Assembly (NCBI GenBank): GCA_963725075.1
Contig: CAVRXA010000003.1
Coordinates: forward strand, 2,485 to 66,484
Source of the DNA: an uncultured Acidobacteriota bacterium
Lineage (GTDB): Bacteria > Actinomycetota > Acidimicrobiia > Spongiisociales > ZC4RG35
Length of the DNA stretch: 64,000 nt
Direction: 5' to 3'
In this document: in pieces, positions 23,624 to 28,701 of the stretch
How the letters are laid out: every line of letters begins with the position of its first letter
How positions within the stretch are numbered: the stretch's first letter is position 1
Program-made: the position numbers and the translations under genes
Notes under the pieces: model-generated
The model's database searches: none
Told to the model about the DNA's origin: nothing
Seen by the model: only the letters and a program-made list of their open reading frames with translations

Positions 23624-24802
23624 GTGGCCAACGAACGTCGCGAGATGCTGGAGAAGAGCACCACGCTCTATTTCGGCCCCTGGTACCGGAGATCGCCCTT
23701 CTTCGAGTCGACGCTTGCCGCCGGCTGCTCCTCCTACGACATCTACAACCACATGTACCTGCCCGCCTACTACGACGACCCCGACGTGGAGTACTGGGCG
23801 CTGGTGAACGGGGTCACGATGTGGGACGTAGGTGTCGAGCGAACGGTCGAAGTAAGCGGGAAAGATGCCGACCGGCTGATCGACTACATCACGTGCCGGG
23901 ACCTGACCAAGTGCGCCGTCGGCCAGGGGAAGTACATGCCGGTCATCGCTCCCGACGGCGGGATCGTGAACGACCCGGTCCTGCTTCACGTCGGCGAGAA
24001 CCGGTGGTGGATGCAGCTGGCCGACTCCGATGCCGGGCTGTACGCCCTCGGCGTGGCGGCCGGCCGCTTCGATGCGGACGTCACTCTGCCGGACGTGCAC
24101 CCGATGCAGGTGCAGGGACCACTGGCAGCCAAGACCCTGGAGAAGCTGGTCGGGGCCGGCATCTACGACATCAAGTACTACTGGCTGGGCGAGTTCGAGA
24201 TCGATGGGATCCCGGTCGTGATCAGCCGCACCGGGTGGACCGCCATCCCCGGGTTCGAGATCAACGTCCTCGATCGGCGTGATGGCACCGCCCTCTGGGA
24301 CGCGGTGGCGGCCGCGGGCGAGGAGTTCGACATCCGCCCCATTGCCCCATGTGAGGCGCGCCGGATCGAGGCCGGGATCTTCAACTACGGGTCCGACATG
24401 ACCCTCGATGACACTCCGTTTCATCTCAGCGGCATGGAGCGTCTGGTGGAGTCGCAGGACCAGGACTACCTGGGGAAGGCGGCGTTGGAAAGCATCCGGG
24501 AGACAGGGGTCGACCGCAAGCTCGTCGGGATGTTCCTCGAAGGCGACCAGTTGCGGGCCGAGCTGTCACAGCCCTGGCCGGTGCTCTTGATGGAGATCGA
24601 GGTCGGTCGGGTCACCGACGCGGTTTGGTCGCCCGGGCTGGAGCGGAACATCGGGTACATGTGGGTCCCGATCGAGCTGCTCGACCACGGGACCCGGGTC
24701 GAGGTCGTGACCGAGGACGGTGAGGAGCTGACCGCGGTCGCGGCGAGCCTGCCCTTCGTCGACCCGCAGAAGAAGGTGCCGGCCAAGAGCCTCAGCGTCT
24801 GA
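23624..24802 (+). CDS. GcvT-family THF-dependent methyltransferase, DmdA (DMSP demethylase)-like
   Basis: YNHMYLP, WDVGVERTVEVSGKD, TCRDL, VNDPVLL, WWMQLADSD, VQGP, SRTGW, RIEAG..NYG.D. Confidence 0.8.
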   Translation: MANERREMLEKSTTLYFGPWYRRSPFFESTLAAGCSSYDIYNHMYLPAYYDDPDVEYWALVNGVTMWDVGVERTVEVSGKDADRLIDYITCRDLTKCAVGQGKYMPVIAPDGGIVNDPVLLHVGENRWWMQLADSDAGLYALGVAAGRFDADVTLPDVHPMQVQGPLAAKTLEKLVGAGIYDIKYYWLGEFEIDGIPVVISRTGWTAIPGFEINVLDRRDGTALWDAVAAAGEEFDIRPIAPCEARRIEAGIFNYGSDMTLDDTPFHLSGMERLVESQDQDYLGKAALESIRETGVDRKLVGMFLEGDQLRAELSQPWPVLLMEIEVGRVTDAVWSPGLERNIGYMWVPIELLDHGTRVEVVTEDGEELTAVAASLPFVDPQKKVPAKSLSV

Positions 24803-26626
24803 GCAGCTCGAGGACCTGTTCGACCACGAGGTCCGGGTGGTCCCAGATCACCATGTCGAGCCCTGATTCGTTGGCGATGACGGAGCGCGAGTCGGTCGAG
24901 AGCGCGGCGTAGAAGGCCAGCCCTTCTTGCCAGTAAGTGTTCACCGCGTCAACGGCCTCACGTCCAAATGCGTCGATGAAACCTCGCGACTGGAACACCG
25001 AGTCCGGATCCTGTTCGATCACTGTCAAAGGCACGTTCCCGAGGCCATCGAGAGATTGGGAGACCTCGGCATCCAGATCGAGCCACGGTGGGTGGCCTGC
25101 CAGGTCCGGGAGGAGATCATCGTAGAAGTCCTGGAACCCGACCGGCTTCGGGTCGACCAGCACCAGGCCGGCAATATCGTCACGCCCATCGGCAAACAGA
25201 CGGGCAGCGTGCACACCGTCGACGGCAGCGGCCAACACGTAGGGCCCGGAGATCCCGGCCTCGCTCAGAGCCTGCTCGAGGTCGGCAGCTTGTTGTTGCG
25301 GCGTCGTCTCACCCTCCACGTATCCGTTGGAGCAGACGACGTATCCCTCGCTGGATAGCTCGGCCTGGATGACCGACCACGACCCGTAGTCGATCCAGTC
25401 TGAAGGTTGGAGGATGACAGTGGGGCCACCGGACTCGGCGCTCCCGGTGCAGAGCAAGCGATGGGGGAACCGATTCCAGTCGTCGACCACGATCGGGCCC
25501 ATTTCGATGAGGTCGGCGCTGGTGTCGAGCCGGATCAAGGCTCCGCGGTGATAGAAGGTCACCCAAAGCGCCCCATCGGCCACTGCCAGCCCGCCGGGCT
25601 TGCCGGGCATCGGATATCGGTGCTGCTCGCCAGTTGCCGGGTCGATCCGGATCAAGAGATGGTCGGTGCTCGAGGTCACCCAGAGATCGCCGTCGAATTC
25701 GATCAGGTCGAGGAGCCCGAAAGTGAGGCCGGCAAACGCTCCGAACTCGCCCGAATTCGGGTCGTAGACGTTGAGGTTGGTCCCCCAGGGATAGTCGCCA
25801 TCCAGCAAGAAGAGGCGGCCGTCCGCTTCCGCGACCTGGCGAATTCCCGATCCGCTCATGGTCTCCAACCCTCGTTCGGTCGGGATCACCATGTCGCCGA
25901 GCTGCCCACTTTCGGACAAGCTGGAGATCAGGTCAGTGCCGGGGTCGTTGACCCAGAGATGGCCAAGCCCATCGCCCCCCTTGAGCTCCCCCGGAACCGT
26001 GGCGATGATCTCCCCCTCGGTCGATATCCGGATCACATCAGCCTGCTCACGGCCGACCCACAGACTGTCTCCCAGCCAATTGGCCCACCCAGGCACTCCA
26101 CCGACGGGGATGGTCAGATCGACCTCTCCGCTTTCTGGGTCGAACCGCAGCACCGTGCCGCCGTTGTCAGGACTTATCAGCCAGAGTCGACCGCCGCCGA
26201 CGACCACGCCCTCGACGCGGGCGTCGATGGGATAGGTCGCCTCGATTTCTCCTGACTGAGCAGACACCTCTTGGAGAAGGTTCTGCAGGGTGGTCATCAC
26301 CCAGATGCGTGTCGCCGTCGACGTCCATCGCCTGAAGACCGCCTGACGCCAGCGGAACTGCCTCATCGATACCCCGGATACGCAGCGAGGCCGTCGAGAT
26401 TCGGGGCGAAGACCGATGGGGGATCGTGCGGAGCGCCACCGGGATGGCGACCGCGATCACTGCTGCAAATGAGGCGACGGCGATCAGCCAGGGTCTACGC
26501 CACACCGCGGCAGAGGGAGCTCAGGGACCCGGACACGCCAATCCGCTCGTCGACCTTGGTCCGTAGTCGATTCGCGTCAGCATGCATGTCGCGGGCCGGA
26601 TCGGCGCGCTCCATCAGCTCCATCAT
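24792..26626 (-). CDS. Membrane-anchored protein: anti-sigma-like N-terminus + TM + beta-propeller + degenerate alpha/beta hydrolase (two or more frameshifts near the N-terminus)
   Basis: ATGA overlap with the sigma stop; MMELMERADPA; TM WLIAVASFAAVIAVAIPV; repeated LWV...RID blades; C-terminal GPYVL...AGLVLVD fold. Confidence 0.6.
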
Positions 26627-27177
26627 GTCGAGGCCTCCTTGGGTGAAACTTGCGAGGATCCGGGAGCGAGCCGGTCGAGTCGAGCCCTCAATCGAGCCCG
26701 TGCCCGGTGCAGCCGTTGGTCGACCGCGTTCTCCTTGATGCCCAGAACCTGGGCGATCTCCGCTCGGCTCAGACCATCCCAGGAGGAAAGGCGGAGCAAC
26801 TCCTGGTCGGTTCTGCCCAGCTGTTCGAGCGCGGACAGCAGGTCATCGAACTCGCCGTCCGAACTGGTGCCGGGTCCCTGAGGGGTGGTCTGCTCCAAAC
26901 GCGCCGACAGCCTGTTTCGACGCTGACGGCTTCGGTACTGACTCCCCACCACCCGATGGGCGACTCCGAACAGCCATGCCTTTCTGGCATCACCCTCCGG
27001 CATGTCTTCGATGCGGCGCCAGGCAACGGCGAACACATCGGCAGCGGCATCTTCGGCATCGGTGGGGCCGAGGCGGCGAGCGCAATACCGGAAGATGGCG
27101 TTGTAGTTGGAGTCGAACAGATGGTCGAAGCGAACGCTTGGGTTCTCGGTCAGCTCGATGGCACTTCGCTCGGACAC
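26623..27177 (-). CDS. ECF RNA polymerase sigma factor
   Basis: DAEDAAADVFAVAWRR, AWLFGVA (region 2); LSRAEIAQVLG...RLHRARARL (region 4). Confidence 0.92.
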   Translation of the reverse strand: MSERSAIELTENPSVRFDHLFDSNYNAIFRYCARRLGPTDAEDAAADVFAVAWRRIEDMPEGDARKAWLFGVAHRVVGSQYRSRQRRNRLSARLEQTTPQGPGTSSDGEFDDLLSALEQLGRTDQELLRLSSWDGLSRAEIAQVLGIKENAVDQRLHRARARLRARLDRLAPGSSQVSPKEAST

Positions 27178-27221
27178 ATCTGCCTTTCCGACATGTTATG
27201 TGCCCGGATCAGCCGCTCTGC

Positions 27222-27720
27222 TTACACCTGTCCCGGCTGATCCTCCATCGGCGTGAGCCTGATGATCGGGATCTTGCGGTCGGTCTTCTCCAGGTAGGAG
27301 CCGTATCCGGGAGCCAGCGACACGATCCGATCCCACGCCTCCTGGTATTCCTCGCCCGTCGAGCGAATCGGCGTGGACACTGGTCTTGTGCTTATCGACC
27401 GTGGCCCAAGCCTGATCGGGATTGGCGGCGAGGTTGTGACACCAGCCCGGGTGCCGAGCCGCGCCACCGTTGGAGCCGACCACGAGCCATGCGCCTGGAT
27501 GCTCCGGGTCGTCGAACCGGCCGAGCAACGCCTTTCTCTCTTTCCCGCTCTTGGCTCCCATCGTGGTCAGCAAGACGAGCGGCAGGCCTTGCATCTTCAT
27601 GCGATCGCCCATCGTGTTGAAGATGAGATTGCCCAAACCCGCCCCGGCCTTCATCAGGGCTTTGGCGAAGCCGGGTATCTCGGTACCCCGGGTTCCTTTG
27701 GGAGAGAGCGTCACCGCCAT
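27222..27720 (-). CDS. F420-dependent nitroreductase family (Ddn-like) oxidoreductase (frameshift ~27355)
   Basis: LLTTMGAKSGKER, VVGSNGG...HPGW.HNL.ANP, YGSY..KTDRKIP. Confidence 0.88.
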
Positions 27721-27768: not shown

Positions 27769-28701
27769 ATGAGCGATCGGGATGCGGTGCTGGTAACCGG
27801 GGCGCGCGGGTTCATCGGCGCCTGGGTGGTCAAGACACTGCTGGCCGACGGTCGGGGAGTAGTGGCGCTCGATCAAGATCCGGATCGAGCCCGTCTCGCT
27901 CAGGTCCTCGAGGACGACGATGACAGCTCTCTGACCGAGGTAGCCGGTGACATCACCGATCTCCCGGCGTTGAAACAGGCCCTAACCGACAATCGGATCG
28001 GTGCGGTCATCCATCTCGCCGCCCTCCAGGTCCCGGCGTGCGCAGCCAACCCTTCCCGCGGCGCGTTGGTGAACGTCGTCGGGACCACCAATGTGCTGGT
28101 CGCAGCCCGTGATGCCGGGATCGAGACTCCGGTGGTCTACGCCAGCTCGGTGGCTGCGTTGAGCCCTAATGGGGACGATGGCCCACCATCGACCATGTAC
28201 GGGGTCTTCAAGAAGGCCAACGAGGGCACGGCACTGCGGATGTGGAGCGATGAGGGAGTCTCCTCCATCGGCATTCGCCCTCACACCGGGTACGGCGTCG
28301 GCCGGGATCAGGGTCTCACCTCCGGACCGACCAAGGCCATGCTCCACGCCGCGGCCGGCCTTCCCTATCACATCGGTTTCGGCGGATCACTCCAGATGCA
28401 GCACGGGCAGGACGTGGCCCGGGTGCTCGTGGCCGCCGCTGACTCTGGCTTCGAGGGCGCCATCGTGCTCAACCTTCCGACACCAGCCACCGACATGGCG
28501 ACGATCGTCGCCGCCATCGAGGCGGCGGCGCCGGAATCGGCCGGGTCGATCACCTTCGATGAGACACCGCTCCCGTTCCCACCCCAGCCAGTGCCCGATG
28601 ACGTCGAGGCCATCCTTGGCAACCATCTCCGAGACGCCACTCGAGGCGCGGGGTGGAATCGACAATCCGCCAATTCGAGCGATTGCTGGCCCGTGGGCTG
28701 A
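27769..28701 (+). CDS. NAD-dependent epimerase/dehydratase (possible frameshift near the 3' end)
   Basis: VTGARGFIG, IHLAALQ, YASS, YGVFK. Confidence 0.85.
   Translation: MSDRDAVLVTGARGFIGAWVVKTLLADGRGVVALDQDPDRARLAQVLEDDDDSSLTEVAGDITDLPALKQALTDNRIGAVIHLAALQVPACAANPSRGALVNVVGTTNVLVAARDAGIETPVVYASSVAALSPNGDDGPPSTMYGVFKKANEGTALRMWSDEGVSSIGIRPHTGYGVGRDQGLTSGPTKAMLHAAAGLPYHIGFGGSLQMQHGQDVARVLVAAADSGFEGAIVLNLPTPATDMATIVAAIEAAAPESAGSITFDETPLPFPPQPVPDDVEAILGNHLRDATRGAGWNRQSANSSDCWPVG

Follow-up and report, generated by a model that had tools for sequence, protein, structure and literature searches.

A putative two-gene ECF sigma factor/sensor module in uncultured Acidimicrobiia with a beta-propeller and an alpha/beta-hydrolase-fold domain without a Ser nucleophile

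A stretch of 64,000 nucleotides from an uncultured bacterium (contig CAVRXA010000003.1 of assembly GCA_963725075.1; this whole stretch is called the window below) carries on its minus strand a gene for an extracytoplasmic function (ECF) sigma factor and, overlapping its stop codon, the gene of a predicted membrane protein, here called the partner. We give a probability of about 0.6 to the reading that the two genes form an ECF module of a sigma factor and a single-pass anti-sigma factor/sensor with a pseudo-hydrolase ectodomain, and that the frame breaks in the window copy of the partner gene are assembly errors. ECF sigma/anti-sigma pairs are a major bacterial route for sensing the outside, and for most ECF groups, to our knowledge, neither the signal nor the domain that senses it is known.

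The sigma gene has a GTG start and encodes a protein of 184 residues containing only sigma2 and sigma4 domains, which at this length (about 170–200 residues being expected) identifies it as an ECF (group 4) sigma factor. Scores lay above the cut-off for the Pfam families Sigma70_r2 (37.4 bits, cut-off 24), Sigma70_r4_2 (58, cut-off 25.7) and Sigma70_ECF (30.5, cut-off 21.1) and for TIGR02937 (77.6 bits, cut-off 42.9). No named ECF subfamily (BldN, SigE-Streptomyces, SigK and others) was reached, with scores of 73.1 against a cut-off of 206.45 for TIGR02952 and of 65 against 141.55 for TIGR02983. The closest solved chains were Mycobacterium tuberculosis SigL (6dv9_F, E 2.3e-13) and then CnrH (4cxf_A, E 2.1e-11). 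The junction between the two genes reads CGACATGATGG, in which the partner ATG at 26626 overlaps the sigma TGA (ATGA), in agreement with the overlap described in an earlier note on this DNA.

The partner gene is not continuous in the window. Its open reading frame (ORF) runs from the ATG at 26626 through MMELMERADPA to RLRTKVDERIG and then meets a stop, leaving the correct frame after about residue 33. A second frame encodes the transmembrane segment WRRPWLIAVASFAAVIAVAIPVAL, while the remainder forms a 524-residue ORF (24792..26366) in a third, and four frame changes (A>B>A>B>C) are needed to read from one end to the other. Comparison of the window genome (G000) with the DNA of its relatives G006 and G020 placed the indels at about 26521 (+1), 26428 (−1), 26376 (+1) and 26308 (+1), a net change of +2. 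The G006 orthologue (locus L002) is an intact ORF of 610 residues that overlaps the stop of its own sigma gene and shares 98% protein identity with the window copy over 505 aligned residues; G020 has the same intact arrangement. When 41 genomes were searched, among them the unpublished G027, which bears on none of the results given here, full-length uninterrupted copies were found in nine of the same genus (G006, G020, G018, G007, G015, G014, G023, G005 and G011), and the copies in G008 and G013 were spread across several frames. At E ≤ 0.001, 211 of 8000 scored proteins matched the partner, and the 120 matches listed were mostly about 600–625 residues long. The intact L002 orthologue and the length of these homologues show that the fragments in the window belong to one gene, as the earlier note had assumed.

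We consider that the four breaks are probably errors of the assembly consensus rather than the mark of a true pseudogene, because orthologues are intact, the downstream sequence shows no decay, soil contigs do not carry the extra base at 26307/8, a neighboring gene is broken as well and frame disagreements between assemblies of this group are common. The 1.5 kb past the last break contain neither a stop nor an indel, and their identity to the unbroken gene of G006 is 98.6% in amino acids and 96.5–100% in DNA. The base at 26307/8 was absent from the contigs of all four public soil runs (three studies). The only contig to span all the breaks, X1, had a net change of −2, which cancels the +2 of the window, together with 33 substitutions and six gaps. 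The breaks fall in the most strain-variable stretch, since, of the 32 X1 substitutions listed, 12 lie within 26317–26440. Among ORFs that have 150 residues or more and are at least 80% identical in G000 and G006, frames disagreed in both directions: 5/32 G006 ORFs were split on G000 and 4/32 G000 ORFs were split on G006. The idea that G000 alone is an error-prone assembly is unsupported, since the disagreements run both ways.

A genuine pseudogene in the window, with four real frameshifts inactivating the partner and leaving either a free (constitutive) sigma factor or a dead system, is unlikely given the intact and nearly identical 1.5 kb, the soil contigs without the 26307/8 base, the frame-broken neighboring genes of the same assembly and the variability of the stretch in which the indels sit. 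Several observations nevertheless speak for it and weigh against our reading of the breaks. The frame is never restored in the window, and the four indels lie within about 215 nt, a local density far above what random error would give and unlike the sparser disagreements elsewhere. None of the contigs compared is identical to the window strain, the best one differing by 33 substitutions. Apart from this, G006 itself shows frame disagreements against G000 (the 4/32 above), and either of the two assemblies may be the one that errs elsewhere.

Scanning a single genome of each species revealed the partner gene at 44 public loci, in metagenome genomes of Acidimicrobiia/Actinomycetota type and a few with other labels; the family is so far known from uncultured Acidimicrobiia metagenome genomes only. 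A sigma gene lay directly upstream on the same strand at 39/39 loci with upstream DNA, the other five loci being cut within the gene by the end of the contig, and the ATGA stop/start overlap was present in 31/33 sigma-adjacent junctions. The prediction that homologues stay next to the sigma gene was thus borne out, and with so many loci and protein matches the arrangement exceeds a chance occurrence.

The N-terminus of the partner follows the consensus M[IM][ED]LLERADPA and then RLRAKVDERIG. Across the 44 members D9 and P10 are invariant, and conservation is at least 90% for L4, A11, D17, R22 and V25; judged from this alignment, the peptide is much more conserved than its use as a membrane anchor would require. 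It does not constitute a class I anti-sigma domain (the four-helix type of about 80–90 residues, zf-HC2/RskA-type), as no family match was obtained and only two short helices precede the transmembrane helix at residue 46. Full-length relatives were also present in other genera when 301 genomes from the class were searched, the unpublished G282 being included without bearing on any result given here. One of them (L063) has a different N-terminal motif, MNRSELETLVRQADPA, and a sigma factor 40% identical to that of the window, whilst another (L062) has a third motif, LEDRLRATLARWADEAP, and a SigE-family-like sigma factor (TIGR02983, 139.2 bits against a cut-off of 141.55); both retain the ATGA overlap. 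These three clades, to which the comparison is confined, suggest that the ectodomain may have been reused with different sigma/N-terminus pairs, as would be expected if the N-terminus were sigma-specific and the ectodomain had the sensing role. Two distant N-termini gave weak NCBIfam matches, P0160 to the ‘anti-sigma factor’ family NF052375 (E 2.6e-4, 21 bits) and P0151 to CU044_5270 (E 0.003). Both lie far below the cut-off of 100 and establish no membership, though they point in the same direction.

To describe the architecture we used a structure model of the intact orthologue P0001 (98% identical to the window protein), made with a 44-sequence alignment, which had a predicted local distance difference test score (pLDDT) of 85.6 and a predicted template modelling score (pTM) of 0.81. 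The model contained the order of parts that the earlier note had read from the window: a short cytoplasmic N-terminus, one transmembrane helix, a beta-propeller and an alpha/beta-hydrolase fold. The N-terminus forms two short helices (residues 2–7 and 18–29) in the model, and Arg-rich residues flank the N-terminal, inside, end of the transmembrane helix. The positions of all parts are collected in Table 1.

Searched alone with Foldseek, the propeller matched Vgb lyase (2z2o_D, TMt 0.73, root-mean-square deviation (rmsd) 3.8) and BamB (3q54, TMt 0.53). Scores against Pfam Vgb_lyase, DUF6923 and PQQ_2 were all below cut-off, and membership of the Virginiamycin B lyases was not reached (Vgb_lyase 29.5 bits against a cut-off of 50) despite the similar fold. 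Sequence searches of the Protein Data Bank (PDB) with phmmer and with a profile returned weak Vgb-lyase matches only.

Sequence families also said little about the C-terminal domain: the window fragments of the partner matched no hydrolase or anti-sigma family in Pfam or NCBIfam, and this domain had no Pfam match of its own. When the C-terminal domain of the window copy itself was modelled alone, the model (pLDDT 89.8, pTM 0.89) had an alpha/beta-hydrolase fold. VIA-align gave Z-scores of 17.6–15.8 and rmsd values of 2.9–4.2 over 184–217 of 233 residues, with Z at least 8 in 1000/1000 chains; Foldseek gave at least 500 matches at E ≤ 0.001, and a protein-atlas feature search gave 0.94 to Abhydrolase_1/6 clusters. 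At the level of the models, the predicted alpha/beta-hydrolase fold is confirmed.

Table 1. Features of the sigma/partner locus, in window positions.
Feature	Positions	Strand	Basis or remark
Promoter-like element GTAAG-N16-GGCAC	27200..27225	-	ends 22 nt before sigma GTG start
ECF sigma factor, 184 aa	26623..27177	-	Pfam r2, r4_2 and Sigma70_ECF plus TIGR02937 above cut-off
Putative anti-sigma/sensor gene, ~610 aa if read through	24792..26626	-	broken by four one-base indels
Cytoplasmic N-terminus, candidate sigma-binding peptide, 44 residues	26495..26626	-	conservation, model
Single transmembrane helix (WRRPWLIAVASFAAVIAVAIPVAL)	26428..26505	-	residues 46–66 in P0001 model
Predicted seven-bladed beta-propeller	25527..26375	-	28 strands (7 x 4), residues 86–381, P0001 model
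Alpha/beta-hydrolase-fold domain without Ser nucleophile (pseudo-hydrolase)	24795..25493	-	residues 378–610 in P0001 model
Nucleophile elbow YVLAAAVDGVH, Val at the Ser position, then invariant Asp-Gly	25209..25241	-	alignment to true hydrolases
Former His loop ESGLDMV, no His	24849..24869	-	alignment

The C-terminal domain is an alpha/beta hydrolase by fold that has lost the catalytic Ser and, in the window copy, the catalytic His. Both peptides on which the earlier note had based this claim are present in the window (Table 1). A BLASTP comparison with a genuine secreted alpha/beta hydrolase of G000 (L059) gave 28% identity (E 2e-9), and the domain aligns to such hydrolases without gaps over the block GPYVLVGxSxGG...AGxVLVD. 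In the alignment of the 44 members, with P0001 numbering, the column of the Ser nucleophile (468) contains Gly in 36, Val in seven and Phe in one, the window copy having Val. It is followed by Asp469 and Gly470, both invariant (44/44) and both present in the window, and His472 occurs in 43/44 members. For the catalytic His, the first candidate column (589) contains L, M, F, Q, D or T and His in 0/44 (Leu in the window), whilst the column chosen by MAFFT with a one-residue insertion (590) contains Asp in 21, His in 14, Glu in seven and Phe and Gly in one each (Asp in the window). Two acidic positions are Asp in 44/44 members, the window copy included: 491, after beta6, is conserved in true hydrolases too, and 539, after beta7, is not. 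The window copy thus has neither a Ser in the Sm-x-Ser-x-Sm elbow nor a His after the last strand that would mark a catalytic Ser hydrolase. Extended to the homologues, the loss of both residues holds in full for Ser (absent in 44/44) and in part for His, which is found in 14/44 at the one-residue-insertion column.

Relatives of the C-terminal domain numbered 862 at E ≤ 0.001 among 1.84 billion representatives, and were mostly proteins of 300–350 residues. The stand-alone relatives of this size retain GHSxGG and SGH. Among the stand-alone or differently fused relatives that were fetched, Ser and His are kept in P0150, P0156, P0161, P0166, P0173, P0174, P0180, P0188, P0222, P0224, P0203 and P0235, with P0209, which has no Ser, as the exception. 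Distant proteins of the same architecture, by comparison, have Gly in the Ser column in 9/9 inspected cases (P0143, P0151, P0153, P0160, P0175, P0198, P0210, P0268 and P0136), as do L062 and L063; His is retained in only some of the distant proteins. Since Ser is absent from the close family and from all inspected distant proteins of this architecture, the alignments indicate that loss of the nucleophile is old and general for the propeller plus hydrolase-fold architecture. Two invariant Cys of the family, C392 and C431, are common to the secreted hydrolases, and this shared pair would fit an extracytoplasmic location of the ectodomain.

Haloalkane dehalogenases and epoxide hydrolases use Asp nucleophiles, and by analogy the domain could still be catalytic through the invariant Asp469 as a non-canonical nucleophile. 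The conservation of D469, G470, H472 and D491 would suit such an enzyme, and the top structural matches include chains of haloalkane dehalogenases and epoxide hydrolases (8ooh_B, Z 17.2; 7ac0, Z 16.1). We nonetheless regard this as very unlikely. The ungapped alignment to true hydrolases sets the Asp at the position after the nucleophile instead of at the apex of the elbow, and strand 462–467 and helix 470–478 of the model fit position 468 as the apex. Val two positions after the Asp would be a poor elbow residue, and the catalytic His is missing from the window copy and from 30/44 members.

A conserved element upstream of the sigma gene provides a candidate promoter. The family consensus is TGTAAG-N16-GGACACATAACAT (TGTAAG-N16-GGACAC), and the pattern GTAAG-N16-G[GA]CA[CT] was found in 29/29 sigma-upstream regions, 12–22 nt before the chosen start and between flanks that are otherwise unalignable. 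A position weight matrix (PWM) scan of G000 gave one site with a score of 37.8, the next best scoring 10.3 and the lowest training sequence 19.6; a loose pattern gave four matches in G000 where about 15 were expected. Each of five further genomes had exactly one perfect match, always at the sigma operon, and the numbers of one-mismatch matches in these genomes were within the range of reversed-pattern control counts. Positive autoregulation is usual for ECF sigma factors, and the conservation of the element would fit positive autoregulation by this one.

The same scans also supply an argument against an anti-sigma/sensor module, to be taken together with what was found at the N-terminus. Neither the PWM nor the pattern scans revealed a target promoter besides that of the operon itself in the six genomes, and no regulon was visible apart from the sigma gene and its partner; the conserved motif could belong to another regulator. 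The N-terminus of P0001 matched no known anti-sigma domain in Pfam or NCBIfam, its first 46 residues gave only a chance-level match against PDB sequences (E 0.94), and it was modelled at a pLDDT of only about 60. On this basis the partner might instead be a co-transcribed target or effector, an exo-protein anchored in the membrane that uses its propeller to bind or process a compound from outside; the sigma factor would then be controlled in some other way. As the sole copy of the motif per genome is that of the operon, the downstream protein would be the only visible output, and the Vgb lyase that the propeller resembles is an enzyme. We find this improbable in view of the strong conservation of the 44-residue cytoplasmic peptide and because each sigma clade has its own N-terminal motif on an ectodomain of constant architecture. 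Moreover, anti-sigma genes are usually found where the partner gene lies, strictly next after the sigma gene and coupled to it by ATGA, as established knowledge has it and as passages of the supplement describe (Casas-Pastor, 2021).

Taken as an anti-sigma/sensor module, the system would work as follows. The sigma factor would be translationally coupled to a single-pass membrane protein with its N-terminus inside, and the cytoplasmic N-terminus of about 44 residues most likely holds the sigma factor inactive. The propeller, packed with the hydrolase domain that lacks Ser (and here also His), would be the signal-receiving part. A signal at the ectodomain would lead to release of the sigma factor, either by the usual route of regulated proteolysis, in which a site-2 protease makes the last cut, or by a conformational change. 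M50 site-2 protease homologues are present in G000, and they occur in most bacteria. The freed sigma factor would then transcribe its own operon from TGTAAG-N16-GGACAC, as the conservation of this element suggests. A rather doubtful extension is a self-contained loop, in which the only promoter of the sigma factor is that of its own operon, the membrane protein is both sensor and sole output, and the ectodomain is an exchangeable specificity cassette, recently swapped between species and joined to other sigma/N-terminus pairs in other clades. For example, a compound from outside could be bound or trapped in the cavity of the propeller and pseudo-hydrolase, and its appearance would raise production of the protein.

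The DNA of G000 and G006 forms a mosaic around the ectodomain. Identity is 96.5–100% over exactly the ectodomain-coding part (24800–26199) and only 73–89% in the sigma gene, the N-terminus/transmembrane part and the flanking genes, while G000–G020 and G006–G020 identities are 73–95% throughout. One boundary lies at the stop codon and the other near 26200–26300, where the indels begin. Either the sensor cassette was recently exchanged between species or the consensus is chimeric; X1 spans the junction, and chimerism is still compatible with this.

Further observations concern frames and neighboring genes. The gene upstream of the sigma gene (27222–27720, minus strand) is frame-broken at about 27356 in G000 and intact in G006, where it encodes a 160-residue protein that we take to resemble deazaflavin-dependent nitroreductases, and in G020; it is syntenic in the closest relatives only. 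Additional isolated one-base gaps against G006 occur at 28266, 28621 and 28647, inside the region of the ORF 27769..28701 (plus strand), which suggests further frame problems in the assembly of G000 or in that of G006. At seven of the 44 public loci (L032, L036, L040, L050, L052, L054 and L058) the partner gene was matched in two or three frames, and some assemblies of this group thus often have frame-broken copies. One locus (L026:806-1324) has a second, different ECF-like sigma gene about 1.1 kb upstream of the family’s sigma gene. Two near-identical genes for secreted/lipoprotein-like alpha/beta hydrolases lie on different contigs of G000, at C26:6336-7220 (L059) and C13:4153-5034 (L060), the latter with an apparent small indel near its C-terminus relative to L059. 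The pair may be a real duplication or reflect redundancy of the bin (4.89% contamination).

Parts of this architecture have precedents. Putative anti-sigma factors with WD40 beta-propellers have already been noted, and putative anti-sigma factors with a SpoIIP hydrolase domain are mentioned, in the part of the supplement available to us; none of the 12 passages on hydrolases in that same part concerns an anti-sigma factor with an alpha/beta-hydrolase domain, and the main text has no occurrence of hydrolase, propeller or Acidimicrob (Casas-Pastor, 2021). Among the papers that we looked at on anti-sigma factors with a hydrolase fold or pseudoenzyme, or with a beta-propeller, none described the combination of propeller and hydrolase. 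Homologues are named in databases as ‘hypothetical’ or by automatic COG names (‘pimeloyl-ACP methyl ester carboxylesterase’, ‘streptogramin lyase’), with no characterised relative among them. The remark in the earlier note that the domain combination is unfamiliar among characterised anti-sigma factors therefore stands within these sources.

The family is well delimited and conserved in uncultured soil Acidimicrobiia, and every member joins an enzyme fold without its nucleophile to a propeller and a sigma-coupled membrane anchor. It would be a clear natural example of the recruitment of an enzyme for a receptor role, with the same ectodomain reused with different sigma factors. If the proposed module is correct, it would represent a new sensor architecture, possibly with a new type of short anti-sigma peptide, and an orthogonal sigma/promoter pair (TGTAAG-N16-GGACAC) with apparently a single target. 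The general picture of ECF signalling would be unchanged.

Among known proteins, the closest catalytic relatives of the C-terminal domain are the secreted hydrolases of G000 (C26:6336-7220 and C13:4153-5034), which share with it the GPYVL...AG.V.VD framework and the two Cys. In contrast to the partner, they retain GTSGGG and TGH, are about 295 residues long, reach Abhydrolase_1 (31.2 bits, cut-off 25.8) and have no propeller or sigma link. Hydrolase-fold receptors and non-catalytic members offer a functional analogy only, in that the fold serves, or has been proposed to serve, in perceiving signals and not in metabolism. KAI2/ShHTL7 and NDRG1 were among the fold matches; GID1 and RsbQ are further alpha/beta-hydrolase-fold receptors or non-catalytic members, and NDRG1 and GID1 also have no full triad. 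The likeness to KAI2/ShHTL7, NDRG1, GID1 and RsbQ is at the level of the fold (9–21% identity among the VIA-align matches), and none of these proteins is known to have a propeller fused to it or to be coupled with an ECF sigma factor.

The S9 prolyl-oligopeptidases/acylaminoacyl-peptidases have the same order of domains, a seven-bladed propeller and then an alpha/beta-hydrolase domain, and the best whole-chain Foldseek matches of the P0001 model were of this family: acylaminoacyl peptidase (9s6b_C, E 8.5e-17), PREPL (8rfb) and puromycin hydrolase (3azo_A). Membership of S9 was rejected on TM-scores of 0.29–0.37 and rmsd values of 10.7–14.1 Å, the domains being placed differently, and on the absence of both a Peptidase_S9 match in Pfam and the Ser. 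Unlike S9 enzymes, the partner has a C-terminal domain whose sequence relatives are secreted hydrolases of Abhydrolase_1 type, its triad is incomplete, and it is predicted to be membrane-anchored and extracytoplasmic.

Two kinds of anti-sigma factor resemble the partner most. The short class II peptides of CnrY type, CnrY being the partner of CnrH and having no large ectodomain, are alike in the very short cytoplasmic peptide before one transmembrane helix, and CnrH is the second-best solved relative of the sigma factor; the partner differs in an N-terminus without sequence similarity to any PDB chain and in its large ectodomain. The single-pass transmembrane anti-sigma factors of ECF sigma factors that have extracytoplasmic sensor domains (for example RsiV, RskA/RslA of mycobacteria and RsgI) are encoded, like the partner, directly downstream of the sigma gene with a stop/start overlap, and they likewise have a single transmembrane helix with the N-terminus inside and a large ectodomain; the site-2 protease in G000 adds to the likeness. 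Against these proteins, the cytoplasmic part of the partner is short (only about 44 residues, forming two short helices) and gave no match to a domain of zf-HC2/RskA type, and its ectodomain is predicted to combine a propeller with an alpha/beta-hydrolase domain that has no Ser.

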